Shown here one piece after another: positions 7,733-46,302 of a DNA stretch of 64,000 bases. Positions within the stretch are counted from its first letter, which is position 1. Each line of letters begins with the position of its first letter. A program made the translations under genes and the position numbers. The notes under the pieces are model-generated. The model was not told the DNA's origin. It made no database searches and saw only the letters and a list, made by a program, of their open reading frames with translations. The stretch comes from Patescibacteria group bacterium (GTDB lineage Bacteria; Patescibacteriota; Patescibacteriia; 2-01-FULL-39-33), in assembly GCA_041649575.1 (NCBI GenBank), contig JBAZMW010000004.1, positions 21,687 to 85,686 of the forward strand, read 5' to 3'.

Positions 7733-9331
7733 ATGAAAATTAGCGTAGAAAAAAAATTACGAAACTGGCAACTAGAGGCGCTGAAATCGCCCGAGTTTGC
7801 TTTTGTGGAAAAGTTGACAAAAAAATTCCCCGAGGCGAAAGTTTACTTGGTGGGCGGTGCCGTCAGAGACCTGATTCTAGAGCGTGATACTAAGGATTTT
7901 GATTTTGTGGTGGCCAAAGTGCCGGCCAAGGATTTGGAAAAATTCCTTAGCTCTTTGGGCAAGGTCAATCTGGTTGGCAAAAGTTTTGGAGTATTTAAGT
8001 TTGTACCTAATAACGTCATCCCGAGCGAAGCCAGGGGAGAAGTGTGGGGATCCCGCGGGATTGCCACGTCGTCCGGTTCCGTTACGCGGAACCGGTCTCC
8101 TCGCAATGACATTATTTTTGAACCCTTCGATATCGCTCTGCCGCGCACCGAGCATGCGGGCATGAGCGGCGGCTACAGGGATTTCGAAGTGCAAAGCGAC
8201 CAAGACTTGCCAATCGAGGAAGATTTGTCACGCCGCGATTTTACTATTAATGCCCTGGCCTGGGACTTGAGAGAGAAAAAAATAATTGACGAGTTTGACG
8301 GACTAAAAGATTTGGAAAATAAAACTATCAAAGCGATTGGCAAACCGGAACAGAGATTCCAGGAGGATTATACCCGCCTGCTGCGCGCTATCAGGCTCTG
8401 CTGCCAACTGGATTTTATGATCGAGGCCCACACCCTGAAAACCATTCACGACAAAGCTCAAAAAATCGGCACCATTGCCAAAGAAAGAATTAATGAAGAG
8501 CTAGTCAAAATTGTCATGTCGAACAAAGCCGAGGACGGTTTTCGATTACTGCAAAAAATCGGGCTTTTAAAAATATTAATTCCAGAACTGGAGTCGACGG
8601 TTAACATCAGCCAGAATAAACATCATATTTACGACATTTTTGAACATAGCGTACGGGCGCTGGGAGCAGGCGCTCAAAGGAATTATTCGCTTTGGGTGCG
8701 GCTGGCGGCGCTACTGCATGACATTGGCAAGCCGCAAACAAAAGAGGGCGAAGGCCCCGACTCAACTTTTTACAACCACGACATCGTTGGAGCCAAAATC
8801 GCCAAAAATATTTTAAAACGACTAGATTTTTCCAATGAGACTATTAGCAAGGTGACGCATTTAGTGCGTTATCATATGTTTTATTATGCCCTGGATACGG
8901 TGAGCGACGCCGGAGTAAGGCGACTACTAGCGCGACTGGGCAAAGAAAATATTCAAGATTTCATTGATGTCAGAATCTGCGACCGGTTGGGCATGGGCCG
9001 GCCTAAGGCCAAACCCTGGAAGCTGATTGAGCTGGAACGCCGACTCAAGGAAGTGCAGCTCGATCCCATTACTCCCAAGATGCTCAAAATCAATGGCGAT
9101 GAGCTGATGAAAATTTTGAAAATCAAGCCGGGACCGCGAGTGGGCCTGATACTTAATGCCCTGCTGGGCGAGGTTTTGGAAGATCCCGAGAAAAACGATA
9201 AAAAATATTTGACCAAAAAAATGAAAGAGTTGGATAAATCGAAAGACGAAGAATTAAAAAAACTAAATCCGGATGTAAAATTTTACGAAGAAGAAAGGAA
9301 GAGGTTGCTACATTTCAATAAAGACAACTAA
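7733..9331 (+). CDS. cca: CCA-adding tRNA nucleotidyltransferase / poly(A) polymerase family with HD domain
   Basis: GGAVRD and RRDFTINA head motifs; HD domain (LLHDIGK); 532 aa; contains an in-frame 96-bp repeat insertion. Confidence 0.8.
   Translation: MKISVEKKLRNWQLEALKSPEFAFVEKLTKKFPEAKVYLVGGAVRDLILERDTKDFDFVVAKVPAKDLEKFLSSLGKVNLVGKSFGVFKFVPNNVIPSEARGEVWGSRGIATSSGSVTRNRSPRNDIIFEPFDIALPRTEHAGMSGGYRDFEVQSDQDLPIEEDLSRRDFTINALAWDLREKKIIDEFDGLKDLENKTIKAIGKPEQRFQEDYTRLLRAIRLCCQLDFMIEAHTLKTIHDKAQKIGTIAKERINEELVKIVMSNKAEDGFRLLQKIGLLKILIPELESTVNISQNKHHIYDIFEHSVRALGAGAQRNYSLWVRLAALLHDIGKPQTKEGEGPDSTFYNHDIVGAKIAKNILKRLDFSNETISKVTHLVRYHMFYYALDTVSDAGVRRLLARLGKENIQDFIDVRICDRLGMGRPKAKPWKLIELERRLKEVQLDPITPKMLKINGDELMKILKIKPGPRVGLILNALLGEVLEDPEKNDKKYLTKKMKELDKSKDEELKKLNPDVKFYEEERKRLLHFNKDN
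8035..8130 (+). mobile_element. MITE-like palindromic element inserted in frame in cca (32 codons)
   Basis: 5' GTCATCCCGAG and 3' CTCGCAATGAC terminal inverted repeats; internal 9-bp hairpin CCGGTTCCG/CGGAACCGG; about 62% GC; the 3' half recurs at 35581-35624 and 44431-44466. Confidence 0.65.
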
Positions 9332-25235: not shown

Positions 25236-25300
25236 CACTGTGCGCATACCTGGATTTGAAGTCTGGACCTTCCCGATATATCGGGACGCTCTAATTAAAT
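25236..25300 (-). pseudogene. partial tRNA-Ile-like copy (D-arm end, variant anticodon arm, T-arm, acceptor 3' strand)
   Basis: Minus strand: TTAGAGCG-TCCCGATATATCGGGA-AGGTC-CAGACTTCAAATCCAGG-TATGCGC-A; matches the 3' two-thirds of tRNA-Ile(GAU) except the anticodon arm. Confidence 0.55.
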
Positions 25301-25527
25301 CCTCTAGATACTTTCGCGACTTCATTCTTTTTAAACAACTCTCTCTTCTGATTGCCTCTTTTTTGTCCTCGTATTCTTCATGATAGACTAATTTTTAAGG
25401 CTTTTTATTGCTGGTGTACCGGCCTGTAGAGCTATTATGCTGGCGAATTCTCTTTTCCAAATCAGAAGAGTAACCAATATAGTAGCTACCATCTCTTTCG
25501 CTTTGCAAGATATAAAGGCAATGCATG

Positions 25528-25601
25528 TGCGCATACCTGGATTTGAACCAGGGACCTCGTCATTATCAGTGACGCGCTCTAACCAACTGAGCTATATGCG
25601 C
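25528..25601 (-). tRNA. tRNA-Ile (anticodon GAU)
   Basis: Minus strand: GCGCATA-TA-GCTCAGTTGGTTAGAGC-G-CGTCA-CTGATAA-TGACG-AGGTC-CCTGGTTCAAATCCAGG-TATGCGC-A. Confidence 0.85.
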
Positions 25602-25604
25602 TTA

Positions 25605-25731
25605 ATTTTAAACCTGGGACCTTCCCGATATATCGGGACGCTCTACCAACTTTTCAATCCCGACTTGTCGGGGGGAGCCCCGCCCGACTGAACGGCGTTC
25701 AGCCGTTCGGGCGGGTATATGCGCTTAAATT
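25605..25731 (-). pseudogene. degenerate tRNA-Ile-like copy carrying a 66-nt GC-rich palindromic insert in the D-arm
   Basis: Minus strand: GCGCATATA + CCCGCCCGAACGGCTGAACGCCGTTCAGTCGGGCGGGG... + TTGGTAGAGCG + TCCCGATATATCGGGA + AGGTCCCAGG; shares the variant anticodon arm with 25236-25300. Confidence 0.5.
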
Positions 25732-30638: not shown

Positions 30639-31064
30639 TTAGGCGCTGGGAGTGTCTGCTGAAGCGGCTTCTGCCGGCGCGGCTGTTTCGGCTTTCTCTT
30701 GAGCCTGCTTGGCGGCTTCGGCTTCGGCTTTCTTGGCGGCGTCGATAGTGGCTTTCTCTTGAGCCTTTTGAGCAGCTAGGGCCGCCTGTTTTTTCTTGCC
30801 GGGCTGCGACTTGGAGGCTCTGACTTTCTTGTCTTTGATAATCCCTTGGCTGACCAGTAGATTGTGAACCGTCGAGGTAGCTTGAGCTCCTTGCTTTAGC
30901 CAATACAAAATTCTGTCATTTTTTATCTGACTTACTTTGGTCTTAGGGTTATAAGAACCCAGGTTTTCTAAAAATTTACCCCAGGGATCACGGGTTTTTT
31001 CGGTGACAATCAGCCGATAAAGCGGCTGTTTTTTCTTGCCAACGCGAGATAGTCTGATTGATAA
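30639..31064 (-). CDS. rpsP: 30S ribosomal protein S16 with Ala/Lys-rich C-terminal extension
   Basis: MLSIRLSRVGKKKQPLYRLIV is the S16 signature. Confidence 0.85.
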   Translation of the reverse strand, partial: LSIRLSRVGKKKQPLYRLIVTEKTRDPWGKFLENLGSYNPKTKVSQIKNDRILYWLKQGAQATSTVHNLLVSQGIIKDKKVRASKSQPGKKKQAALAAQKAQEKATIDAAKKAEAEAAKQAQEKAETAAPAEAASADTPSA

Positions 31065-31288
31065 CATTATTTGTTGCTGATTAATTCTTAATTTCTGAGC
31101 ATTGAACGGTAAAGTTATGCTACTATATTTTACAAAAAAAGTCAATTAACCTTATTGGATTAATATATTTTATAACCAGCTTTTACAAAAAAAGGGCCAG
31201 CGATACGAGATCACTGTCCCTTGGAAAATCGCGGCCGAAGGCCAAGGATTCAATCCAATGGCCAAGCGGCCGAAAACCGAAGTCCAGA

Positions 31289-32251
31289 CTACCCGAGGCA
31301 GAACACCGACGCCGAATAGTCGTCGCTGGCATACGACAGATAGTCGGTGTAGTCGAAGTTCGCATAGGAATCGTAGGCGAGGAAGCGGAGCGAGTAGGAC
31401 TGCCACTGAAGAGCCGGGCAGCGCACTATTGGTGTCTTGGCGTCTCGGCAGAGCTCCTTGGCATAGGCCATGTAAGCCACTGCCGTGTCCAAGCCGCCGC
31501 CCAAGAGCATCCATTCGGGAATCTGGGCGGACAGTTCATGCCCGACGAAGGTCTCGCGACAAGCGTCGACGCTGTAACCGCCGAAAGGCAGAAGCGTGAC
31601 GCCGACAACCGGTTCTTTGGCCAAGGCGGCGAGCAGACACTCGTGCCGACTGCCGGCTACGATGCTGACCTCGCCGGCCAAGTCGGTTTCACGGTAGTTC
31701 GTGAACTTCCTGCCCTCGGCCTCGAAGGCTTCCTCATAAGCGCTCCTCACCCCGTCGACAAAAAGCTTCAAGGTGGCGCCGTAGCCACCTTTGTCCTCCG
31801 GCAGAATCGTGCCCGCTGGCAGAACAGTCGGCAGCCAAATGCCTTTGACGGCATTGGCCGTGCGAGGATCGCCCGCCAGCCTGGTGATAGTGGCCTTGGC
31901 TCGTACTTCGAATTCCTCGGCCGACGGCAAGCTGAGCGCCTCGGCTTTGACTCGCAGTCCGATGGCCAGATGCCGACGGACGCGCTCGAGGATCTCGCCG
32001 TAGTTGATCGAGGGTTGGTTGACGTAATACGCGCCAGCGTCGCAGAACGCAGCTTTGAGTCCGGGAAACGGAATGAAGCGGCTGTTCTTGTCGAACAGCT
32101 TACGGACGGTCTCCTTGATCTCCGCGGTCATTTCGTGACGCAGCAGCGCCTTGACGACATTGACGCCGCCAAGCTGGTTGCCAAGCGCCACCCAGTGGGT
32201 ATGTGGCAGGTCGTCCAGTGTTTCCAGTTGATCAATGTTAAAGTCCTTCAT
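31289..32251 (-). CDS. hypothetical protein D (320 aa) of GC-rich island
   Basis: RBS AAAGGAG; strong promoter TTGACA-17-TATAAT at 32363..32335; about 60% GC; no recognisable domain. Confidence 0.5.
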   Translation of the reverse strand: MKDFNIDQLETLDDLPHTHWVALGNQLGGVNVVKALLRHEMTAEIKETVRKLFDKNSRFIPFPGLKAAFCDAGAYYVNQPSINYGEILERVRRHLAIGLRVKAEALSLPSAEEFEVRAKATITRLAGDPRTANAVKGIWLPTVLPAGTILPEDKGGYGATLKLFVDGVRSAYEEAFEAEGRKFTNYRETDLAGEVSIVAGSRHECLLAALAKEPVVGVTLLPFGGYSVDACRETFVGHELSAQIPEWMLLGGGLDTAVAYMAYAKELCRDAKTPIVRCPALQWQSYSLRFLAYDSYANFDYTDYLSYASDDYSASVFCLG

Positions 32252-32334
32252 CTTGCGCTCCTTTCAGCCCATGGCCGAAATGGCTTTTCCCCTACCCGAG
32301 GATTGGGAACAGTCCTACGCAGGACCATCAGACT

Positions 32335-32363
32335 ATTATACTAAATAAAAAATAATCTGTCAA
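32335..32363 (-). promoter_or_regulatory. consensus sigma70 promoter (TTGACA-17-TATAAT) on minus strand
   Basis: Minus strand: TTGACAgattattttttatttagTATAAT in the AT-rich spacer upstream of gene D. Confidence 0.6.
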
Positions 32364-32520
32364 TACTAACAAATTATTTAAAGTTAAATAAAAACTTCCT
32401 CATCTGTCCGGCCAAGCTTCTTGAATGAGATAGAAACTATCTCAAACAAGAAGAAGAGAGAGTTTGGCCGGACGAATGAAGAAGCTTTAAAAGTATTCCT
32501 CAAAACTTGTAAAAAAGATT

Positions 32521-32569
32521 TGCAAGTTTAGTTGGAAGGAGAAGCTGACAAACCACATCAGCTTCTCCC
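32521..32569. repeat. island repeat, short copy 3
   Basis: TGCAAGTTTAGTTGGAAGGAGAAGCTGA-caaaccaca-TCAGCTTCTCC: 11-bp perfect hairpin plus the CCAGTTGGAAGGAG-like core. Confidence 0.6.
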
Positions 32570-32593
32570 AAAACCATCTACCGATCAAGGCCG

Positions 32594-33451
32594 CTAGGCC
32601 TTGGCGATGACGGCGCGAGTTGCCTCAACCGCCGCCACGACGTCGGCCAGCATCATGCGCTGACCGCGGGGACTGCCGGCGATGCCCGCGTGCCCGCCGG
32701 CCGCCTCGCCCCAAAGCCCCTGCACGATCTCTCGTGCCGAGACTCCGGGGATCGGGTCGGCGATAGACACTGTCACCGCACCGGTGACTGTGTTGAAGGC
32801 GACAACAGCTTTCGCCAAGTCGCCTTCCGGGTCGACGTACAGATGGCTGACAAACGTGTCCGCCACCCGCACTGCCACCCCGCCGCCAGCCTCGACGAAC
32901 GATTGCGCATTCAGCGCGACCTCCGCCGAGCGGAACGCCTCGCCCGCCGCGAGAAGTTCCGGGTCGTCAGCGCAAATGCGCTCAACGACCCTGACGGCCT
33001 CCATCACCTGCTCGGTGACTTCGGCCGCGCTGCCGTCGCGCGGGGGCAGGCAGCGGTGACCGTTGCTCCACGCCCAGAAAGCGTAGAGCCGGACGATGTC
33101 GGCTGGCTCGGCGCCGGCTTGGCCTAGCTTGTGCGGACCGTTGAGGTCCACAAAAGCTGCCAGGAGCCAGAATCCCGGCGTCTCGGGCTTGCGACCGAGA
33201 ACGGCCGCACAGCCGCCGACGGAATCGAGATCAAGGTGGGAAAGTCCCACCGCCTCGACTTCACCAGCCGCGCCGTTGTCGGCGAGGCAGGGGGCGGGGT
33301 TGCCCGCCCGCGGCCCGTGATGGGCCAGGGTTGCGACGGACCCGGCGACACACTCGTCGCCGAATTCCGCCTCAACCGAAGCGGTCAGGCCGAAGGGGGC
33401 GAGGACGGCGGCCAATGCGGCCGCATGGTTTGAAATAAAAAACTTCGTCAT
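32594..33451 (-). CDS. hypothetical protein C (285 aa), about 68% GC; faint DHH/DHHA1-like motifs (HLDLDSVGG ... AAGGHAGIAGSP)
   Basis: RBS AGGAGA 7 nt upstream of ATG; longest frame in the region; the motif resemblance is weak and unverified. Confidence 0.45.
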   Translation of the reverse strand: MTKFFISNHAAALAAVLAPFGLTASVEAEFGDECVAGSVATLAHHGPRAGNPAPCLADNGAAGEVEAVGLSHLDLDSVGGCAAVLGRKPETPGFWLLAAFVDLNGPHKLGQAGAEPADIVRLYAFWAWSNGHRCLPPRDGSAAEVTEQVMEAVRVVERICADDPELLAAGEAFRSAEVALNAQSFVEAGGGVAVRVADTFVSHLYVDPEGDLAKAVVAFNTVTGAVTVSIADPIPGVSAREIVQGLWGEAAGGHAGIAGSPRGQRMMLADVVAAVEATRAVIAKA

Positions 33452-33560
33452 GGCTTATCTCCTCTCTCGGAGTTTCAGCGCGCCACGCGCTGTGCCTCTC
33501 TCTGGTTTATCAAACCCTGCAAGCGAGAGACAAACTGGCAACTCCGCGCCGACAACCGGT

Positions 33561-33724
33561 GCAGAGTTTTTTCCTCAAGCCCCGCAAACTCACATTGTTT
33601 GCGAAGCCAGTTGGAAGGAGGAGACAGAAAAACCACTCTGACTCCTCCGGATAACCTTGTTTGCGTTTGTAACGAGGCCGCCGCCTCCGATTGTTTGACC
33701 TCTAACAATCGTAAAGGAGTGTTC
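33561..33724. repeat. island repeat, long copy 1 (164 nt, multi-hairpin)
   Basis: About 96% identical to 34422-34585; contains the TGCGAAGCCAGTTGGAAGGAGGAG core plus hairpins GGAGGAGACAGA/TCTGACTCCTCC, GCAAAC/GTTTGC and CGATTGTT/AACAATCG. Confidence 0.75.
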
Positions 33725-33762
33725 AGATTAAGGCCTAACACACAAGGTCTTTCTGGCGTGAC

Positions 33763-34333
33763 CTACTCGGACAGCGTGATGATCAGGTCTTTGACCTGAT
33801 CATCACGCTCAGACCAGACGGCGTTGGCTGGCTTCTGCCACCACCGCTTCTTCGGTGCGCCCCATTCGGCGGCGCATTCAGCGAAGTGGCTGCAATCCCC
33901 CCCCGAATCCGCGCAACAGAGCGCGTAATACGCGGCTAGCGCTCGGCGTTCGGCCGCGATACCAGAGGAGGAGCAGCAGAAGGCAGCGACGTCACCCGCT
34001 ACCTTTTTCGCCCGGGCGAGTTGCTCCGGAGAACTTACATTCTCCAGATAACCGCGGGCCCACTCTTCAACATCCGCGATGTCGCACATCGCGGCATGCT
34101 GCGCTACGATCCTTCTGGAAACGCGCACAGCCCACTTATTCGCTAGCTCCTTGGCTAGCGAATAAGAGGCGAGGCAAATGATTTCGTAGCTTGAAAATTT
34201 CCACGAAATCAGAGCATCCACGTCCTCCCTCCTAAACTCATTGCCCGCCCCATACCAGCGGCGGGCCACTTCTCTTTCGCATTTAGGAAAGCTCCTGAGA
34301 GCTTCCCTCAGGGTTCTGTACCTTTTCAAGTTC
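33763..34333 (-). CDS. hypothetical protein B (190 aa) of GC-rich island
   Basis: RBS GGAAAGGAGAGAGAG-ATG; the longer upstream frame is an artefact of running into repeat copy 2. Confidence 0.5.
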
Positions 34334-34421
34334 ATCTCTCTCTCCTTTCCGGATGTGGCCGAGATGTGGCCGGTCCCCTCGGAAACTACCATATATCCAA
34401 AACTCCGCACCGACCATCGGC

Positions 34422-34585
34422 GCAGAGTTTTTTCCTCAGGCCCCGCAAACTCACATTGTTTGCGAAGCCAGTTGGAAGGAGGAGACAGAAAAACCACTCT
34501 GACTCCTCCAAATAACCTTGTTTGCGTTTGTAATGAGGCCGCCGCCTCCGACTGTTTGACCTCTAACAATCGTAAAGGAGTGTTC
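34422..34585. repeat. island repeat, long copy 2
   Basis: Near-identical to 33561-33724. Confidence 0.75.
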
Positions 34586-34717
34586 TAATTAAGCTCTTGC
34601 GAGCCGGCCTAACACACAAGGCCGTTTGCCCATGATTTTACGCGGATGGCTTCTGCCCTTGACACGGGCCAAGGACTTTACCGCAACCGCCGAAGCGGGC
34701 TGTGAGGACGCCGAAGG

Positions 34718-35206
34718 TTACTTGGCTTTCGGCATCCCCGGCAGCTCCTGGAGCTGTCGGATGAAGGGGCCGACGATGTCGGCCACCTCCGAACGGAAGC
34801 ACGTTTGTGCTTCCATCGCGCACTCGCAGTCACCAACGGCGATTGCGAATGGAGGAAGGGGAAGTTCCACCGCCTCTTCCGGCAGTGAAACTTCCACCTG
34901 CAGAGGATATTCTCCCCCACAAATGTCTTCTGCCAATACCTGAATATGATCCAGGTAACCGCCCACGCTCACGTAGCGGCGAAACTCCGCCGCCACACTC
35001 GACACGCCCACCGAATATGAAACGGCGAACGTGCCCGACCGGGAGGATAGGCTAACCTCCATCCCGGCCTTCGTAAGAATGACGTACCCGCCATCATTAC
35101 GACCCACCTTCCACCCCGCTGCTACTGCAGCGGAGATGGGAATATTCCCTTCCCGCGGCCAGTTCGACCGCAGAAAAGACTTAACCCCTTCAGAATAGAA
35201 ACTCAT
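34718..35206 (-). CDS. hypothetical protein A (162 aa) of GC-rich island
   Basis: RBS AAAGGAGATAAGTT-ATG; no recognisable domain. Confidence 0.5.
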   Translation of the reverse strand: MSFYSEGVKSFLRSNWPREGNIPISAAVAAGWKVGRNDGGYVILTKAGMEVSLSSRSGTFAVSYSVGVSSVAAEFRRYVSVGGYLDHIQVLAEDICGGEYPLQVEVSLPEEAVELPLPPFAIAVGDCECAMEAQTCFRSEVADIVGPFIRQLQELPGMPKAK

Positions 35207-35404
35207 AACTTATCTCCTTTCACAGAGATCTCGGCCTGCCACAGGCCGTGTCCGCGAGGATCGACAATCCTCTTTTTTCGTCTCATGACGGCGGACAAAT
35301 TACTGCCAGTACCGCACAATGCGGCGCTGGTTTTTTCTATGCTTACCAGCCGCTGACCCAAGTCAGCTGCTAGGAATTTCCTCAGACTTCACGGACAACA
35401 GGCC

Positions 35405-35450
35405 TGCGAAGTCAGTTGGAAGGAGAAGCCGAGACTCGCCCGGCTTCTCC
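35405..35450. repeat. island repeat, short copy 4
   Basis: TGCGAAGTCAGTTGGAAGGAGAAGCCG-agactcgcc-CGGCTTCTCC. Confidence 0.6.
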
Positions 35451-35547
35451 AAAATCAATCATGAATAAATATTTAATTTATTTATCTCTTAATTTTTTAT
35501 TCAGTTGTCAAAATACTTCTTGTCTTAGCTTCTCACCATATGCTCCC

Positions 35548-35624
35548 GTAGCCCGAAGCGCCTTGTTTCTTATAACTCGGGATTGCCGCGGTCGCCCGCC
35601 TCTGGCGGACTCCCTCGCAATGAC
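35548..35624. mobile_element. intergenic copy of the MITE-like element (degenerate 5' end)
   Basis: CGGGATTGCCGCGGTCGCCCGCCTCTGGCGGACTCCCTCGCAATGACA matches the 3' halves of the cca and polA copies. Confidence 0.6.
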
Positions 35625-36349
35625 AGTTACGAAAGGCGTTTTACTAATCAAGACGGTTCTTCCAACCAACGGGTGGTTAATCTGTTGATTGGAAATGTCT
35701 GTCTCGAATAGATAGACATTTGGCAAAGGAGTTGCGATCCGAGAGGCTGACGCTAACAAGCATGCGGCGCCAGACCTCGAGCCGGACAGCTATCCAACAA
35801 CCGTCACTCTAACGGTGGTTTGTTGCCCTATGAGTGATATTTAGCGAGGCGAGGATTTCTCTCTTCGATAGTCCTGGCTTCGCCAAACATTTTAAGGTGC
35901 TTGAGTTTAAAGTGCTGTTCCCAACTCTCTCTTTGGGAAGGCCGGGTTCAGAAGTGACAAGCTCTTCCGAGGCCCGGCTCTCCCGCCCGATCTAGAAAGT
36001 TTCAAAAAACTCTCAACCGGGCGGAGAGAGCTTCGAGGTGCTTCCTTTTTCTATTGGTCGCCGCCCTCTCTCCTTGGCGGCTTCCAAATCCAGTAAGGAA
36101 GCAATTGACTTTTTATTTAATGTTCTCTGGTCGGCTATCTTTTTCCTGTTTTCAGCTTACAAACCCATTATATCATATATAACAAATATTGTCAAGCATA
36201 TATGACTAAAAATTTAGAATTTATTATTATTTTCCTAAATTTATTAAAATATATTATCTAATTTATAATACTATTTTGTCACAAAAATTTGACATTTAAA
36301 TATTATGGGTGTATAATGAAAGTATCTATTTAATAAATCAACAAAGAAT

Positions 36350-39417: not shown

Positions 39418-42180
39418 TTATTTCCCTATTTTTTCCGCCTCGGCTAATTTGAGCGACAAGAGCCGAGAAACACCGTCGCCTTGCATAGTGACACCATAAA
39501 GCACATTGGCGCGCGACATAATGGCCCGATTGTGGGTGATGACGATAAATTGAGTTTTATGGGCCAGCTCCTCGATGATATCGCTGAACTTGGCGGAGTT
39601 GTTTTCGTCCAGAGCCGCGTCTACCTCGTCAAAAAGAATGAAAGGCGAGGGATTGTTGGCAATGATGGCGCAAATTAAGGCCAGGGCGGTCATGGTTTTT
39701 TCCCCGCCGGAAAGCACGCTGACGCTTTTAATTTTTTTGCCTGGCGGACAGGCTTCGATATCAATGCCTATATTGGCCAAGAAAGATTTATCCTCGGGAC
39801 AAACCTCTTTTTTTTCTGGGGTAGCTTCTTTTAGCTCCTCTGCCGCCGTATTTTCTGGCAACGGAACAGAATTTTTCTGGGCGATTTCTTCGCGGATTAT
39901 TTCGGCTTCGGTTTGTTCTTCCTGTTTCTGCGTCAAAACCAATTTGGCGCCGCCGCCATCGAACAACTTTTTGAAATAACGCGAAAAATCCTGATTGATT
40001 CTTTTAAATTCTTCTTCGAATTGCTTTTTAATTAATTTGTCCAACTCCACCACCACCTTCTCCAAGTCTTTGATGGCTTTTTTCAGGTCGTCGCTTTGCT
40101 GACTAAGAAAATCATAACGAGTTTTGACTTCCTCATATTCTTTTTCCACCTCCGGATCGGTGCCGCCAATCAGTTCCAACTGTTTTTTGAGCCGGCTGAT
40201 TTTCAAAGACAGTTCGCCAATGTTGATATTTTTCAAACTACTGTCGACTTTGGGCCGATAGTCCTGGCCCAAATCTTGCCGCATGGCGGAAAAAAGGTCT
40301 TCTTTTTTGGTTTCTACCTTGGCCAATTCCACCCGCACCTCATTAAAGGCCAAATTGACTTTATTTAATTCCAATTGCAATTGGTGCATCTTTTCCTGCA
40401 GAATAAAAACTTCTTGTTTTTTGCTTTCCTCGGCTTCATTAAAGCTATCGATTTGCTCTTTAACTTCCGCCAATGATTTTTCGGTTTTGGCCAACTGGCT
40501 TTCTAATTCCTTTTTCTCTGCCGCCAGCCCTTTGGCCAGCTCGTCCTGATCTTTGGGGGCTAGCTGGTTTTTGGCCAGTTGTTCGGCGGTTTTATTCAGC
40601 TCGGACTCCAATTCTCCTACTTTATTCCGGAGAGAATTCTTTTGGGAAAGCGCCACTTCGACTTTAATTTTTATCTCGTTAATTTCGTTGACCAAGAGGT
40701 CTTTATCTTTCAAAAAACCTGACAGTTGATTTTGCAGAGCGGCAATCTCTTGTGACTGCTCCTGACGGTTGGCGCTGGAGAGACGCTGATAAAAAACTTC
40801 CATCTCCGCGAACAGATTATCGGCTTCGCGTTTCAAGTCTTCCAAAACTTCCAGGGTGGCAGTCCGCCTCAATTTATTAGTGAAATCACGCTGCAACAGA
40901 TAGATGCGATTGACGGTTTGGCGGATTTCTTTTTCGGAAATACCCAATTCGCTCTGAAATTCTTTTTGTAATTTCAATAAATTATCCTCCAACTCCCTGA
41001 ATTCGCTCAAAACCATTTCTTGCCGCGATCGCTTGCCGTTTAAATCCTCTTGCCAGCGCTTAATTTGTTTTTCTTGATCAGCGATCTGAACGCCAAAATT
41101 TTTAAGCTGCGCGTTTAATTCGTCCTGACGCCTTTCGAGCCAAGACAAGTCCTGCCGACCGACTTTCAGATATTCCACATCCAATTTGCCTTTGACTTCC
41201 GCCAGTGACTGGAGCAAAGAGTTTCTTAAAGCCAGCTTTTGATCGTAATCGTTTTGCAATTTATTGAACTCTTCTGCCCGTCCGCGCTGACGACCGATTT
41301 CTTCCAATTGCCTGTGTAGTAAGTCTATTTCCCGCTCCAGCCGCATGCCGCTTTTTTCTTTTTCGGTAAAAGAGCGGGCCAGCTCCTGATAACTAGCGTC
41401 TAAATCAAGCCAGAGGTGGCCGTAATAGTTCATTTGCCATTGCCGCAATTCTTTTTCTATCTCTTTGCGTTTTTGCAAACGATTGACCTGGCGCGTCAGT
41501 GATTTCAGGTGCGGCTCCAGCTCAACCAACAACCCCTTGACCTGTTCGATGTTTTCCCTGGATTTTTTTAGCTTACCAACCGAACGGTCGCGCTTGAGCT
41601 GAAACTGCTTGACACCGGTCGCCTCATCAAAAAATTCTTTTCTTTCCTGGGTCGAATAGTTAACCAAACGATCAACCATGCCTTGGCCGATGATACTATA
41701 GGTATTTTGGCCAAAGTTGGCTTTGGCCAAAAATATAATAATATCAAACAGCCGCACTTCATTTTTATTGAGTAAATATTGAGAGGAAGCGTCACGATAA
41801 ATTTTTCTGGTAATCGCCACTTCGGCATAGTCCACCGGAGCCGATTTGTCTTCATTGTTTAAATGCAGAGAAACTTCGGCCAAGCTCATTTGGGATCTGT
41901 TGGAGGAACCGGAAAAAATCACGTCGGTCGATTTTTTGCCACGCAGCAGCTTCAGCGACTGTTCGCCCAAAACCCAGCGCACGGCGTCAACCACATTGGA
42001 CTTGCCCGAGCCATTAGGGCCGACGATGGCTGTGACGCCGCAAATGCCTCGCGGCAACTGTCCGGTCCGCGACGAAAGGTGTGGGGCGATTTGGCAGCCC
42101 TGGCCGGGCGTGGGAAATTCCAACACCGTCTTTTGGGCAAAAGATTTGAATCCTTGGAGTTCGATACGCTGAAGATACAT
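39418..42180 (-). CDS. smc: chromosome segregation protein SMC
   Basis: N-terminal Walker A GPNGSGKSN, long coiled coils, hinge, C-terminal LSGGEKTMTALALICA/D-loop; about 25-aa GC-rich in-frame insert before the Walker A. Confidence 0.85.
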   Translation of the reverse strand: MYLQRIELQGFKSFAQKTVLEFPTPGQGCQIAPHLSSRTGQLPRGICGVTAIVGPNGSGKSNVVDAVRWVLGEQSLKLLRGKKSTDVIFSGSSNRSQMSLAEVSLHLNNEDKSAPVDYAEVAITRKIYRDASSQYLLNKNEVRLFDIIIFLAKANFGQNTYSIIGQGMVDRLVNYSTQERKEFFDEATGVKQFQLKRDRSVGKLKKSRENIEQVKGLLVELEPHLKSLTRQVNRLQKRKEIEKELRQWQMNYYGHLWLDLDASYQELARSFTEKEKSGMRLEREIDLLHRQLEEIGRQRGRAEEFNKLQNDYDQKLALRNSLLQSLAEVKGKLDVEYLKVGRQDLSWLERRQDELNAQLKNFGVQIADQEKQIKRWQEDLNGKRSRQEMVLSEFRELEDNLLKLQKEFQSELGISEKEIRQTVNRIYLLQRDFTNKLRRTATLEVLEDLKREADNLFAEMEVFYQRLSSANRQEQSQEIAALQNQLSGFLKDKDLLVNEINEIKIKVEVALSQKNSLRNKVGELESELNKTAEQLAKNQLAPKDQDELAKGLAAEKKELESQLAKTEKSLAEVKEQIDSFNEAEESKKQEVFILQEKMHQLQLELNKVNLAFNEVRVELAKVETKKEDLFSAMRQDLGQDYRPKVDSSLKNINIGELSLKISRLKKQLELIGGTDPEVEKEYEEVKTRYDFLSQQSDDLKKAIKDLEKVVVELDKLIKKQFEEEFKRINQDFSRYFKKLFDGGGAKLVLTQKQEEQTEAEIIREEIAQKNSVPLPENTAAEELKEATPEKKEVCPEDKSFLANIGIDIEACPPGKKIKSVSVLSGGEKTMTALALICAIIANNPSPFILFDEVDAALDENNSAKFSDIIEELAHKTQFIVITHNRAIMSRANVLYGVTMQGDGVSRLLSLKLAEAEKIGK

Positions 42181-43401: not shown

Positions 43402-46302
43402 ATGACAAACAAAAAACAGAGGCTGGTTATCGTTGACAGCAATGCTCTGATTCATCGCGCTTTCCATGCCTTGCCACCACTCTCCAACAAAGAAGGCCAA
43501 TTGACCAATGCGGTCTATGGCTTCACTATGATTTTAATCAAAGCCATCAAAGACTTAAAACCAGATTATTTGGCTGCCTGCTTTGATTTAAAAGGCAAAA
43601 CTTTCCGCCACGAGGCCTATGATCAATACAAGGCCACCAGGATAAAACAGCCCGACGAACTCTACCAGCAAATTCCCATCGTCAAAGAGGTTTTAGAGGC
43701 TTTCAAAATTCCTGTTTTCGAAAAAGAGGGGCTGGAAGCCGACGATTTAATCGGCACCATCGCTCACTTAAAATCTGTTGACCGTCCGGACATCGAAACC
43801 ATTATCGTCACCGGCGACCAAGACACTCTGCAGCTTGTCGACTATAATACCAAGGTGCTAACGCCGCATAAAGGCATGAGCGAAACCATCCTTTATGGCG
43901 AGGATGAGGTAAAAGGAAAATTCGGCGGCCTGGAGCCCAAACAACTAATTGATTATAAAGGGCTACGTGGCGACGCCTCTGATAACATTCCAGGAGTCAG
44001 GGGTATTGGTGAAAAAGGAGCCATTGAACTTTTGCGAGAGTTTGGCAGCGTGGAGAATGTTTACAAAAACATTAAATCCAAAAAAATTAAAGAACGAACG
44101 CGCGAGCTGCTTTTGGCCAACAAAGACACGGCGCTATTATCGAAAAGGCTGGCGACCATAGTTTTGGACGCTCCGATAAAATTCGAATTGGAAAACTGCC
44201 GCTTTAGCGGCTTTGATAAAAATGCCGTGGTAGATATTTTTCAAAAATTAAACTTCAAACGACTACTGGCGCAACTAGCCACACTTTTAAAAAATGACCC
44301 TGCGACAACAATAGGGCAAGGAAATTTATTTTCCCAGATGTCATTCCGAGGAGTCCAGTCATTACACCGACTAGACGACGTTGGCCTGCCTGCCGGCAAG
44401 GCAGGGATCCCGTCTAATATTGAAAAAGATGGGATTGCCGCGGTCGCTCCGCTCCCTCGCAATGACAATAAAAAAATCGGCCGGCAAAATTATCAGTTGG
44501 TTGATGAGGAAAAAACCGCCAAAAAATTCTTAACTGAACTGAAAAGGCAGCGCGAGTTTTGTTTTGATACCGAAACCACCGGACTGGATCCTTTTCAGAA
44601 CAAACTACTGGGAATCAGTTTTTGTTGGCAGGAAGGCGAGGCTAGTTATTTGACAGTCAGGATTATTAAAAACAATCTTAAAGAGCTAAAAAAAATATTT
44701 GAGAACAAAAATGTAAAAAAAATCGGCCATAATCTAAAATATGATATTGAGATTTTGGAAAAAAGCGGCCTAAAGACCAATAGGCTTCACTTCGACACCA
44801 TGATCGCTTCCTATGTTTTGAACCCCGGCGGCCGCCAGCATAATTTAGACACGCTGGCTTTCGTTGAACTGGGATACCAAATGCAACCGATAGAGGAGTT
44901 GATCGGCAAGGGACGAGGCCAAATATCCATGGCCGAAGTGCCAATAGACAAAGTTTGTTGGTATTCTTGCGAAGATGCCGATCTGACTTTTAGACTGTAC
45001 CAGAAACTGAAGCAAGAGCTGGGTGAGCAAGGCACGGAGGGCCTGTTGGAAAACCTGGAAATGCCGCTGGTGGAGGTTTTGGCGACAATAGAAACTAACG
45101 GCGTTAAAATTAATGACAAAATTTTAAAAAAATTAAGTGATGATTTCGCCAAAAAAATTTCTGCCATAGAAAAAAATACCTGGAAGCTAGTTGGAGAAAA
45201 ATTCAATTTGGCCTCGCCGTTACAATTAAAACAAATACTGTTTAAAAAACTAAAAATTGACGGGGCTGGGCTGGCTAAAACAAAAACTGGCATTTCCACC
45301 GGCGCGGCAGAACTGGAAAAACTGGCTGCTTGGTTCAGAGAAAACAAGGCGGACGAAAAAAAACTCAAGGTTATAAATTTACTTCTTGAATTTCGCGAGT
45401 TATCAAAATTGAAATCAACTTATCTGGACGCCTTGCCGGCTCTAATAAATAAGGTTGACGGCCGGGTCCATACCAGCTTTAACCAAACCGTGACAGCCAC
45501 CGGTCGCCTATCGTCCAGCGAGCCAAACCTGCAAAATATTCCTATTCGCACAGAAACTGGCGGACCAATAAGACGCGCTTTCATCGCCGAGCGGGGCTAC
45601 AAAATAATGAAAGCCGACTATTCGCAAATCGAATTGCGTATTGTCGCCTCACTGGCCAATGACAAAAAAATGTTAAAAATTTTTGAGAGCGGCGGCGACA
45701 TTCATACCAGCACCGCGGCTTTTATCCACGGCATCAAACCCGAAGAGGTGACCAAAGAAATCAGGCGTACCGCCAAGGAAGTTAATTTTGGTGTCCTCTA
45801 TGGCATGGGTGCCTGGGGGCTCTCGCAACGCACCGGCATTTCCAACACGGAAGCGCAAAAATTTATCAGCAAATACTTTTCTACTTTTAAAGAAGTGAAA
45901 AAATGGCTGGATGAAACCATTGAGCTTGCCAAAGAACGCGGCTACGTGGAAACGCTTTACGGCCGCCGGCGCTACTTACCGGAAATCAATTCGGGCGTCA
46001 GCCAGGTACGCAGCGGCGCCGAACGCATGGCGGTCAACATGCCCATTCAGGGCACAGCCGCCGACTTAATAAAACTAGCGATGATCAAAATTCATAAAAA
46101 TTTGCCCCATATCAGCCCTAAAGCCAAAATAATCCTGCAGGTGCATGACGAGTTGGTTTTTGAGGTGCCGGAAAAAGACATTAAAAAAGTGGCAAAGTTT
46201 GTCAGGGAAAAAATGAGCTCGGTCATTAGGTTGCGCGCTCCGATTGAAGTAGAGGTCTCCGCCGGCGACAATTGGGGTGAGACCCGGGAAATAAATTTAT
46301 GA
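43402..46302 (+). CDS. polA: DNA polymerase I
   Basis: 5'-3' exo (LVIVDSNALIHRAFHA), 3'-5' exo and pol motifs A/B/C (DYSQIELRI, KEVNFGVLYG, QVHDELVFE); in-frame repeat insertion in the exo-exo linker. Confidence 0.9.
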   Translation: MTNKKQRLVIVDSNALIHRAFHALPPLSNKEGQLTNAVYGFTMILIKAIKDLKPDYLAACFDLKGKTFRHEAYDQYKATRIKQPDELYQQIPIVKEVLEAFKIPVFEKEGLEADDLIGTIAHLKSVDRPDIETIIVTGDQDTLQLVDYNTKVLTPHKGMSETILYGEDEVKGKFGGLEPKQLIDYKGLRGDASDNIPGVRGIGEKGAIELLREFGSVENVYKNIKSKKIKERTRELLLANKDTALLSKRLATIVLDAPIKFELENCRFSGFDKNAVVDIFQKLNFKRLLAQLATLLKNDPATTIGQGNLFSQMSFRGVQSLHRLDDVGLPAGKAGIPSNIEKDGIAAVAPLPRNDNKKIGRQNYQLVDEEKTAKKFLTELKRQREFCFDTETTGLDPFQNKLLGISFCWQEGEASYLTVRIIKNNLKELKKIFENKNVKKIGHNLKYDIEILEKSGLKTNRLHFDTMIASYVLNPGGRQHNLDTLAFVELGYQMQPIEELIGKGRGQISMAEVPIDKVCWYSCEDADLTFRLYQKLKQELGEQGTEGLLENLEMPLVEVLATIETNGVKINDKILKKLSDDFAKKISAIEKNTWKLVGEKFNLASPLQLKQILFKKLKIDGAGLAKTKTGISTGAAELEKLAAWFRENKADEKKLKVINLLLEFRELSKLKSTYLDALPALINKVDGRVHTSFNQTVTATGRLSSSEPNLQNIPIRTETGGPIRRAFIAERGYKIMKADYSQIELRIVASLANDKKMLKIFESGGDIHTSTAAFIHGIKPEEVTKEIRRTAKEVNFGVLYGMGAWGLSQRTGISNTEAQKFISKYFSTFKEVKKWLDETIELAKERGYVETLYGRRRYLPEINSGVSQVRSGAERMAVNMPIQGTAADLIKLAMIKIHKNLPHISPKAKIILQVHDELVFEVPEKDIKKVAKFVREKMSSVIRLRAPIEVEVSAGDNWGETREINL
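44340..44466 (+). mobile_element. MITE-like element inserted in frame in polA linker (effective about 126 bp)
   Basis: TIRs GTCATTCCGAGG ... CCCTCGCAATGACA; internal hairpin CCTGCCT/AGGCAGG; 3' half GGGATTGCCGCGGTCGCTCCGCTCCCTCGCAATGACA shared with the cca and intergenic copies. Confidence 0.65.

Follow-up and report, generated by a model that had tools for sequence, protein, structure and literature searches.

The window, a 64,000-nucleotide stretch of DNA from a Patescibacteria group bacterium, harbors a DNA polymerase I gene whose product is 100% identical to P0001 (MFA5029808.1, "DNA polymerase I, Patescibacteria group bacterium"). Pfam domains for the 5'-3' exonuclease, the 3'-5' exonuclease and polymerase A were detected in this protein, and between the two exonuclease domains lies a repeat element of which two further copies occur in the same window. 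The features are listed by position in the window.

43402-46302 (+): polA, DNA polymerase I, 966 aa, the host gene (ORF call)
44339-44467 (+): inserted element of 129 nt, 43 codons, residues 313-355 of PolA; two inverted hairpin modules and a spacer
44339-44412 (+): left (5') module, head TGTCATTCC closing on GGGATCCCG (from folding)
44385-44405 (+): inner hairpin CCTGCCT-gccggca-AGGCAGG at the tip of the left module, encoding LPAGKAG (from folding)
44413-44430 (+): AT-rich spacer TCTAATATTGAAAAAGAT between the two modules
44431-44467 (-): right (3') module, an inverted hairpin whose minus strand reads TGTCATTGCGAGGGAGCGGAGCGACCGCGGCAATCCC (pattern match)
8014-8111 (+): complete sister element with both modules, in frame within the gene for the CCA-adding enzyme, encoding VIPSEARGEVWGSRGIATSSGSVTRNRSPRND
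35579-35626 (+): solo module of the right type in intergenic DNA, on the right-hand edge of a GC-rich island

As an earlier note on this DNA had claimed, the polA frame (43402-46302) stays open for 966 aa across the segment, where it reads ...FSQMSFRGVQSLHRLDDVGLPAGKAGIPSNIEKDGIAAVAPLPRNDNKKIG...; the host flanks abutting the element are ...TTTTCCCAGA on the 5' side and ATAAAAAAATC... on the 3' side. We aligned the protein with 117 PolA relatives and found the linker to be hypervariable in both length and sequence. Relatives with a short linker pass from GQGxLF to xxYxLV in about 10 residues, and baseline relatives are 906-925 aa long compared with 966 aa for the window PolA, the extra 43 residues falling exactly at the linker site. 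The insert is in phase with polA on both sides, its 129 nt are a multiple of 3, and both flanks align in frame. Its GC content is 0.57 versus 0.44 for the rest of polA, and its folding z-score was -5.6, with equally good folds in 0 of 200 shuffles. In the AlphaFold model, residues 312-355 had pLDDT values below 50 and no secondary structure, while the neighboring blocks, at about 86-95, belonged to two well-folded exonuclease domains. Sequence comparison shows 44339-44467 to be inserted into the polA linker that joins the two exonuclease domains (5'-3' and 3'-5'), and from the intact 966-aa frame we infer that the insert is present in the translated PolA. We found no near-identical strain with an empty polA site in the databases, the closest PolA being 71% identical. 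Genuine inteins were seen elsewhere in the PolA of three relatives (P0018, P0040 and P0074).

The element had been placed at 44340-44466 (127 nt), and it does lie there, but the best ends are TGTCAT...ATGACA at 44339-44467 (129 nt). The -1 and +1 bases belong to the inverted repeat, because they are T/A in 56 and C/G in 9 of 91 family members. The terminal inverted repeats that had been described were found (GTCATTCCGAGG at 44340-44351 and CCCTCGCAATGACA at 44454-44467), as was the inner hairpin at 44385-44405, and these "TIRs" are hairpin modules of the NTS/SRM type, which is associated with GIY-YIG Ssn nucleases (see below). The element consists of two such modules, inverted, flanking an AT-rich spacer, and each module has a GTCAT head, a stem, a variable tip and an ATCC tail. 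We compared the left polA module with the left modules of the cca copy, P0032 and P0015; its stem pairs ATTCC with GGGAT, including one T.G pair, and its variable tip is enlarged. A near-identical counterpart of the inner hairpin, CCTGCCTGCGCAGGCAGGGATCCCG, is present in the PolA linker of P0015. Spacers vary within the family and are typically 20-60 nt. All five modules in the window show a (C/T)GTCAT head, a hairpin and an ATCC tail.

The cca copy lies within the ORF at 7733-9331 and, compared with 70 homologues, is an insertion into a loop that spans 2-14 residues in those proteins. Inspection of the junction sequences revealed no target-site duplication at either the polA or the cca copy. 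For the solo module at 35579-35626 we found no left module upstream, where the sequence had no significant fold, and the ORFs of the adjoining GC-rich island had no Pfam match. The 3' module pattern GGGATTGCC-N1-3-GTCG-N5-35-CCTCGCAATGAC matched the window three times (8057, 35579 and 44431), always on the + strand, and never in 100 shuffles; the 12-mer alone was not above chance, since allowing up to 2 mismatches gave 5 window matches where 3.6 are expected. The earlier description of the terminal 36 nt as near-identical among the three copies held for the blocks GGGATTGCC.C(G)GTCG and (C)CTCGCAATGACA, which are conserved, but not for the hairpin tip, which differs in both sequence and length. 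That the copies are related insertions rather than a coincidental linker was borne out: the polA segment is extra relative to the 117 relatives, and the other two copies share the terminal module.

The 3' module pattern was also found at 120 or more genome loci from many phyla, against a chance expectation that we estimate at about 0.1. A partner left module lay within 170 nt of 96 of 144 modules, giving a median element length of 102 nt among the loci listed, and none of 91 complete family members had a target-site duplication of k = 3 or more. Variant basal stems mostly kept a perfect complement, the stem pairs not imposed by the detector each showed 13-22 double compensatory changes, and the covariation score was 0.61 versus 0.15 in shuffles. 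The family hairpin is under structural selection. There were too few G.T and A.C mismatches for their strand asymmetry to separate RNA-level from DNA-level structure.

Copies were located in intergenic DNA and in many unrelated genes, and at least 11 besides the polA copy were in frame in confirmed housekeeping genes. Hosts confirmed by Pfam were UvrA, a class I aminoacyl-tRNA synthetase, UvrB, a MiaB-like enzyme, a Mur ligase, an O-antigen ligase, TrmFO/GidA, RpoC and RecG; in-frame copies were also found in Tgt and in the cca gene of the window. None of the in-gene copies elsewhere closed the host frame, and GIA...PRND, the frame read in polA, was used by 8 of 9 copies in the same orientation. 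In plasmid and phage collections the window copy matched 1 plasmid and 1 phage record and the consensus copy matched 8 plasmids, with Rickettsia absent among the plasmid matches to either query; viral contigs gave 20 matches among 2.9 million. Between distant outward-facing module pairs (120 loci, about 1 Mb) there was no transposase, only ordinary genes, and the ORFs between paired matches at three loci (L052, L038 and L007) were host genes. Rfam returned no family for the window at gathering thresholds or for the two in-gene copies at E up to 10. The 44-aa insert peptide retrieved no candidate with enough shared words from an index of 5.8 billion proteins, and literature searches with element 10-mers, with element-derived peptides and for MITEs in Patescibacteria gave no relevant match.

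One locus, L124, had the layout module, 97-aa GIY-YIG ORF, inverted module, and the module-associated gene is of the GIY-YIG type (PF01541). We then assembled an independent sample of 80 GIY-YIG loci picked by protein similarity only and sought a module within 200 nt on either side. A module was present upstream of the GIY-YIG gene in 35 of 73 cases and downstream in 37 of 75, with 28 loci having one on both sides; the background, by our own estimate from shuffle counts, is about 0.75% per 200-nt stretch. Of 68 modules, 64 had an outward-pointing head: 32 of the 33 lying upstream and 32 of the 35 lying downstream. The modules are inverted ends that bracket small GIY-YIG nuclease genes, heads outward. 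Modules of the GTCATTGCGAG type were seen on both sides of the GIY-YIG gene at L055 and L216 and on one side at L195, L207, L209 and L220.

A covariance model (R1) built solely from 43 GIY-YIG-flanking modules ranked the five window modules 1 to 5, with E-values of 0.008-0.097 and the next match at 1.9. Its E-values were 0.097 for the polA left head (44337-44359), 0.061 for the polA right module (44429-44469, minus strand), 0.008 and 0.017 for the cca copy, and 0.056 for the solo module; for single modules the R1 values are modest (0.008-0.1). The model also located modules in three relatives, within their PolA linkers. In the 84 kb of host genome examined there was no intact ssn gene bracketed by GTCAT modules. 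We did find a GIY-YIG pseudogene at 25287-25532 (minus strand), interrupted by an in-frame TAA, and an intact, tRNA-adjacent GIY-YIG gene of 85 aa that has no GTCAT modules (L227:16356-16613).

Repeats of this kind were characterized by Chenal et al. (2025, Nat Commun, PMC11893778), who defined the NTS as CGTCATTCCCGCGMAVGCGGGAATCYRG and described Ssn-related motifs (SRM), including the Neisseria dRS3 repeat, in many phyla, SsnA being a GIY-YIG single-strand nuclease. In the species tested, Ssn cuts single-stranded DNA beside the hairpin, and the NTS-ssnA-NTS layout was called IS-like; Rickettsia was named among the SRM-rich genomes, and NTS were rarely intragenic (2% in N. meningitidis) (PMC11893778). 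The window modules share with NTS/SRM the head (C/T)GTCAT, a stem starting with ATTCC, ATCCC or ATTGC, and a tail of (G)GAATCC or GCAATCC, as well as the character of a directional, multi-copy hairpin that occurs in many phyla and brackets small GIY-YIG genes with its heads outward. They differ in having a GAG-type internal loop and long variable tips and in forming a compact inverted doublet in frame within genes; modulation of transformation, for its part, has been worked out in Neisseria only. The published SRM string, HGTCWYN(0-2)YYVSBRHN(0-5)WNVSBRGN(0-2)RNCYNB, permits a loop of up to 5 nt and had no match anywhere in the window, and it also missed 34 of 63 GIY-YIG-flanking modules, including every long-tip and GAG-type one. 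Because this string misses them, the window modules are a variant outside the published operational definition. By its membership of the NTS/SRM-Ssn family, the polA insert is a fresh example of a known phenomenon and not a new type of system.

Palindromic elements in Rickettsia (RPE) were reportedly described by Ogata et al. (Science 2000; Genome Res 2002). RPE are palindromic repeats of about 100-150 bp found in frame, at fold-compatible sites, in housekeeping genes that are unrelated to one another; the peptide that they encode recurs and has a preferred frame, and they have no known transposase, decay over time and have been described as unique to Rickettsia (PMC10969869). In all but this last point the insert and its family match them in behavior, being palindromic repeats that lie in frame at tolerant sites (polA, cca and at least 10 genes in other taxa). 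RPE peptides may also share ...ARND/LAMT and HCEE... motifs with the polA element family. Because its host belongs to the Patescibacteria, with a family spread over many phyla, the polA element is not an RPE in the taxonomic sense.

REPINs and REP-BIMEs are GTAG-headed hairpins associated with the RAYT (TnpA_REP) Y1 transposase, and they are extragenic and lineage-specific. The polA element resembles them in pairing two inverted hairpin-forming repeats across a short spacer, in its conserved short head 5' of the hairpin, in lacking target-site duplications, and in that its repeats flank just one partner gene, which codes for a nuclease. Its head, however, is GTCAT rather than GTAG, its partner gene is GIY-YIG rather than an HUH/Y1 transposase, and its family, which also gets into coding regions, varies very little from phylum to phylum. 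The head and the partner gene rule out membership of the REPIN/REP-RAYT group, with which the doublet architecture alone is held in common. ERIC, Correia/NEMIS, Nezha and QMITE1 are derivatives of DDE or IS200/IS605 elements and duplicate their target sites. With such classical MITEs the polA element has in common that it is small and non-autonomous, has inverted ends and is, as they sometimes are, read through in a host ORF, but its family makes no duplication and has a GIY-YIG partner.

We read the polA segment, with a probability of roughly 80%, as a non-autonomous two-module repeat of the NTS/SRM type that is tolerated in frame in a short disordered linker. A copy of the element would have inserted between the PolA exonuclease domains, in a linker that is by nature short and disordered, and, because its length of 43 codons and its phase keep the polA frame open, would be transcribed and translated as a 43-residue unstructured extension. 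It would persist because the linker site tolerates extra length, and the insert is probably selectively neutral. For the spread of the family, an Ssn-type nuclease acting in trans through single-stranded DNA may be responsible. Two-module units would then be ORF-less derivatives that it mobilizes, a suggestion that we make with some reserve. We know of no demonstration of transposition by Ssn.

The insertion could be older than this account implies. A single event in the ancestor of the PolA clade, with the long variable linkers as its decayed descendants, differs from our reading in timing only, and we regard it as possible but rather unlikely. In P0032, whose PolA is 64% identical, the element is present as a canonical copy of 99 nt whose codon position, orientation and frame are exactly those of the window copy, and the P0032 peptide is thus encoded by the repeat itself and is not the repeat-free homologous peptide that the earlier note had named as counterevidence. 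At the matching right junction P0002 retains ...KPRNNDERLGKQNYQ; P0003 reads ENIATT...GHDKIG where the window has DGIAAV...RNDNKKIG, and the linkers of P0015 and P0020 carry modules or half-modules. At 64-71% protein identity, however, synonymous sites should be saturated, yet both copies are near-consensus at their termini. The left junctions of the relatives lie 2, 7, 11 and 16 residues past GQGxLF, and the module subtypes differ, with an NTS-like short hairpin in P0020 (its module GTCATTCCCGCGAAGGCGGGAATCC is identical to the NTS core) and a "VILSQ" type in P0002, which points to repeated independent insertions into a permissive site. The similarity in P0003 and P0004 is, moreover, weak and inconsistent. 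At the other extreme, the linker might be native, hypervariable as it is across relatives, and its palindromy a coincidence. This is refuted by the recurrence of the 36-50-nt module twice more in the window (0 expected), by its presence at 120 or more genome loci, and by the match of the nuclease-derived model R1 to the segment, at which there is also a jump in GC content.

The element is small, ends in inverted repeats, has dispersed copies and can form strong hairpins, all of which would suit a classical MITE, derived by deletion from a DDE-transposase insertion sequence and moved by a cut-and-paste mechanism acting on its TIRs. We consider this very unlikely. The family is not one of classical MITEs because the target-site duplication is absent (0 of 91), each "TIR" is itself a covarying hairpin, a GIY-YIG nuclease gene is the only one found between such ends, and about 1 Mb of loci had no transposase between distant module pairs. 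Loss of the insert on the way to the mature protein, by intron or intein splicing or by translational bypass, seems highly improbable to us despite the strong RNA structure (z = -5.6) and the inteins elsewhere in PolA of the three relatives. The reading frame runs uninterrupted across the insert and keeps its phase at either end, 43 residues are far below intein size, no intein domain is present, and Rfam gave no intron or ribozyme match at E up to 10; that in-gene copies are all open in the host frame and favor one frame is expected for a translated, not a spliced, product. The insert could finally have been co-opted, as a functional linker or as a DNA or mRNA signal, for instance a site cut by Ssn, so that transforming DNA replaces polA less often. 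In Neisseria, NTS reduce the integration of transforming DNA, and an anti-replacement role has been proposed for NTS-flanked genes (PMC11893778); the PolA linker of this clade repeatedly carries modules, and the hairpin is structurally selected family-wide. Nevertheless, we judge co-option improbable, as relatives do not conserve the encoded peptide, for which disorder is predicted, the structural selection is accounted for by recognition of the repeat, a cognate intact ssn gene was not seen nearby, and copies in many unrelated genes and in intergenic DNA are as for selfish spread filtered by tolerance.

Read as a tolerated NTS/SRM-type repeat, the polA insert taken alone is one more selfish palindrome accommodated in a protein linker. 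Protein-coding palindromes, described as confined to Rickettsia, nevertheless occur in Patescibacteria and, through the family, in at least a dozen housekeeping genes across phyla. The tie between in-frame palindromes and Ssn GIY-YIG nucleases provides a concrete candidate enzyme for their spread. For annotation, such inserts inflate protein lengths and yield spurious small ORFs (VIARSEAT..., SLRGA..., ...PRND) in metagenome-assembled genomes, and a covariance model such as R1 can flag them. We tentatively propose, while thinking it somewhat doubtful, that SRM doublets are the trans-mobilized, ORF-less form of a module-ssn-module element and represent a prokaryotic, GIY-YIG-driven class of transposon that makes no target-site duplication. 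If this is true, the family would have lengthened loops and linkers of PolA, the CCA enzyme, UvrA/B, RpoC, RecG, Tgt and aminoacyl-tRNA synthetases in many phyla, an effect especially visible in the small genomes of Patescibacteria, and the 25-year-old puzzle of how RPE enter genes in frame would become a special case.

The polA gene of this Patescibacteria (CPR) metagenome-assembled genome encodes a product identical to MFA5029808.1 ('DNA polymerase I, Patescibacteria group bacterium'), whose nearest named relatives are Candidatus Buchananbacteria. The earlier note had described a repeat copy lying in frame between its two exonuclease domains, and all of the features that it listed were present: GTCATTCCGAGG at 44340, CCCTCGCAATGACA ending at 44467, the inner hairpin CCTGCCT-gccggca-AGGCAGG at 44385-44405, and the open frame, translated ...FSQMSFRGVQSLHRLDDVGLPAGKAGIPSNIEKDGIAAVAPLPRNDNKKIG.... 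We set the ends of the element at TGTCAT...ATGACA (best boundaries 44339-44467) because the outer T and A are part of the inverted repeat. The resulting length, 129 nt or 43 codons, is a multiple of 3, a point that the note had proposed checking. Of the six frames of the element, only two are open, so that phase counts besides length. Its GC content was 57%, versus 44% for the gene, and it folded much more strongly than shuffled sequences (z = -5.6). The 12-mer by itself showed no excess over chance in the window; the composite 3' module pattern had 3 window matches versus 0 in 100 shuffles.

Features discussed here (module, a GTCAT-headed hairpin with an ATCC tail; element, two inverted modules and a spacer)
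43402-46302, polA, open reading frame of 966 aa
8014-8111, complete element in the CCA-adding enzyme gene (cca), translated VIPSEARGEVWGSRGIATSSGSVTRNRSPRND
35579-35626, solo right-hand module, intergenic, at the border of a GC-rich island
25287-25532, minus strand, GIY-YIG nuclease pseudogene with one in-frame TAA after codon 43
L227:16356-16613, intact 85-aa GIY-YIG gene of the same genome, ~5.9 kb past the right end of the window
L035 97-276 and 1669-1848, L041 4834-5638, L086 and L115, tandem arrays of elements in other genomes

In an alignment with 117 PolA relatives, the more distant proteins (906-925 aa) passed from a conserved GQGxLF to xxYxLV within ~10 residues, and the 43 additional residues of the window protein fell exactly between these motifs. 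The insert peptide was absent from the closest relatives (71% identity), the comparison that had been suggested for the segment. In an AlphaFold model (input alignment of 58 sequences, mean pLDDT 86), residues 300-306 and 312-355 had pLDDT below 50 and no secondary structure, while the adjoining 10-residue blocks averaged ~86-95; the insert encodes residues 313-355. These data confirm the original observation and support its interpretation, showing the polA segment to be an inserted member of a dispersed repeat family, in frame within a disordered linker.

The cca copy occupies a beta-hairpin loop whose length ranges from 2 to 14 residues in 70 homologues, and the polA and cca copies read the right module in one common frame (GIA...PRND). 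The solo module sits at the right border of the GC-rich island (31000-35600; 55-62% GC versus ~43%), which holds four minus-strand ORFs of 162-320 aa, none with a Pfam match, and a 193-nt direct repeat (33540-33732 and 34401-34593, with 94% identity between the copies). The window SMC ORF (39418-42180, minus strand) has ~20-25 extra GC-rich residues, …PTPGQGCQIAPHLSSRTGQLPRGICG…, at 42040-42130, directly preceding the Walker A motif VTAIVGPNGSGKS, and at 920 aa is ~100 aa shorter than its relatives (1026-1050 aa). The extra residues may be another decayed in-frame insert.

A search for the right-module pattern, with each species represented by a single genome, gave at least 120 loci, against a chance expectation that we estimate at ~0.1. 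The matches listed included Bacteroidota, Alpha-, Gamma- and Deltaproteobacteria, Dehalococcoidia, Clostridia, Elusimicrobia, Spirochaetia, Hydrogenedentota, Melainabacteria and many Patescibacteria; plasmids and phages nearly lacked the element, and a search of Rfam matched it to no family. The canonical left module reads [T]GTCATTGCGAG, a variable hairpin tip and GCAATC(C/T)C; a spacer of 20-60 nt follows, and the right module reads GGGATTGCC.CGTCGC, a tip and CTCCTCGCAATGAC[A]. Among the matches listed, two thirds of right modules (96/144) had a left partner within 170 nt, and element length had a median of 102 nt (range 66-210) with no overall preference for multiples of three. The basal stem covaried, with ATTGC/GCAAT, ATCGC/GCGAT, ATTAC/GTAAT, ATCCC/GGGAT and ATTCC/GGAAT all found, and no target-site duplication was detected in 91 complete family members. 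The tandem arrays, in Faecousia and Dehalococcoidia genomes, are head-to-tail with periods of 73, 154, ~130 and 178 nt and look at first sight like CRISPR arrays or BIME-like clusters.

In a sample of 141 modules, several loci had a long ORF running through the element. Pfam confirmed the host genes as UvrA, a class I aminoacyl-tRNA synthetase, UvrB, a MiaB-like radical-SAM enzyme, a Mur ligase, O-antigen ligase, TrmFO/GidA, RpoC and RecG, and tRNA-guanine transglycosylase (Tgt) was also seen with an in-frame element. The GIA...PRND frame was used by 8 of the 9 in-gene copies in the same orientation. In-frame copies are thus a general property of this hairpin repeat family.

The modules also bracket nuclease genes. 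In the genome of the PolA relative P0020 (locus L124), a 97-aa GIY-YIG gene lies between two inverted modules with heads outward, the whole unit spanning 378 bp, and the association recurred at L055, a Bacteroidetes locus, and at L084. As an independent test, we applied a strict module detector to 80 metagenome loci, chosen on protein similarity to these GIY-YIG nucleases and nothing else. It placed a module within 200 nt of the gene on the upstream side at 35/73 loci and on the downstream side at 37/75 (both sides, 28), typically 10-60 nt ahead of the start codon and 4-30 nt past the stop codon; we estimate the background from shuffle counts at ~0.75% per 200-nt stretch. Heads pointed outward in 32/33 upstream and 32/35 downstream cases, and in an alignment of 43 flanking modules the stem pairs that the detector did not impose each showed 13-22 double compensatory changes. 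A covariance model built from flanking modules alone (R1) returned as its best five window hits the two polA, two cca and one solo modules (E = 0.008-0.097); the sixth hit had E = 1.9. Together these data show a family defined by a structurally constrained, directional hairpin that makes no duplication and brackets Ssn-type nuclease genes.

At L124:22467-22575, 3' of the module-flanked gene, the module head GTCATTCCTNCCCTCCTTTT is repeated five times in tandem with a period of 20, without the remainder of the hairpin, and similar head-only copies flank the GIY-YIG genes of L146, L147, L175 and L193. At L055:7234-7911, a Bacteroidetes MAG has a 101-aa GIY-YIG gene with a left module on one side and a complete doublet on the other, and a second doublet just upstream. 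The left module also contains the initial 25 nt of the spacer of the local doublet; this sharing of subterminal sequence suggests that a deletion or an insertion relates the units with an ORF to those lacking one.

Several PolA relatives carry modules in the same linker. In P0032 a canonical 99-nt copy shares the codon position and the frame of the window copy, P0015 has a left module with the tip CCTGCCTGC...GCAGGGATCCCG of the window copy, P0008, P0013 and P0020 have the short module GTCATTCCCGCGAAGGCGGGAATCC, and P0002 and P0014 have module-type peptides; R1 detected the linker modules of L124, L121 and L123. A single old insertion, since decayed, would account for the right junction common to P0002, P0032 and the window (...PRN(N)D, 4-5 residues, (K/R)QNYQ), which speaks for common descent. 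Left junctions and module subtypes, however, vary among the relatives, and this favors repeated hits on the linker as the only tolerant site. The linker is not the sole polA site for modules, since an extra hairpin module overlaps the stop codon region of the P0020 gene (L124:12817-12860; R1 E = 0.0045). Three further PolA homologues (P0018, P0040 and P0074; 1279-1387 aa) have the intein domains PF14528 and PF14890, so the polA genes of this clade also host genuine inteins, at a site other than the linker.

Within 84 kb of the host genome, the sole ssn-like sequences were the pseudogene and the intact 85-aa gene, the latter with no GTCAT-type modules around it under the covariance model; for this reason the polA copy may be a fossil. 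Against the module-flanked L124 protein, the pseudogene shows 46% identity over 72 aa and the 85-aa protein 36% over 53 aa. The pseudogene begins right at the 3' end of tRNA-Ile (25527-25601) and is flanked by identical 26-nt palindromes, GACCTTCCCGATATATCGGGACGCTC, at 25266-25291 and 25618-25643; a duplicate of the tRNA-Ile 3' end (…TTCAAATCCAGGTATGCGCAC) then follows. The region (25240-25643, minus strand) looks like a decayed tRNA-targeting mobile cassette. The 85-aa gene has a tRNA-like GC-rich stretch on one side and a tRNA gene on the other.

The polA element is a member of an already described repeat family, NTS/SRM-Ssn. Chenal et al. (Nat Commun 2025, PMC11893778) described the Neisseria NTS, CGTCATTCCCGCGMAVGCGGGAATCYRG, which contains the old dRS3 repeat, and extended the concept to 'Ssn-related motifs', which flank ssnA (GIY-YIG, cd10448) across many phyla, with Rickettsia and Wolbachia among the richest genomes. 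Ssn proteins cleave single-stranded DNA beside their own hairpin, and NTS-ssnA-NTS was likened to an insertion sequence and to the REP/RAYT relationship; NTS were rarely intragenic (2%), and in-frame insertions and doublets were not discussed (PMC11893778). The window modules, with a GAG internal loop and long tips, had no match to the degenerate search string of that study, which also missed 34 of the 63 nuclease-flanking modules collected here. The window modules are therefore a variant beyond the published operational definition, but their architecture, association and model score place them within the family. Rickettsia palindromic elements (RPEs), as outlined in a review (PMC10969869, citing Ogata 2000, 2002), are ~150-bp palindromic repeats of ten families, often in frame within unrelated genes, that encode a conserved peptide and are compatible with protein folds (PMC10969869). 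The polA and cca inserts behave as RPEs do, the likeness being one of behavior; our literature search found no paper tying RPEs to GIY-YIG nucleases. RPE-like in-frame insertion is thus a known behavior, but the host phylum and the gene are new.

The two-module unit would be an ORF-less derivative of module-ssn-module that spreads via single-stranded DNA cut by Ssn. Within genes, only copies whose length and phase leave a tolerant host frame open would survive, which would explain the frame bias. Linking protein-coding palindromes to a concrete nuclease opens the question of their mobility to experiment.
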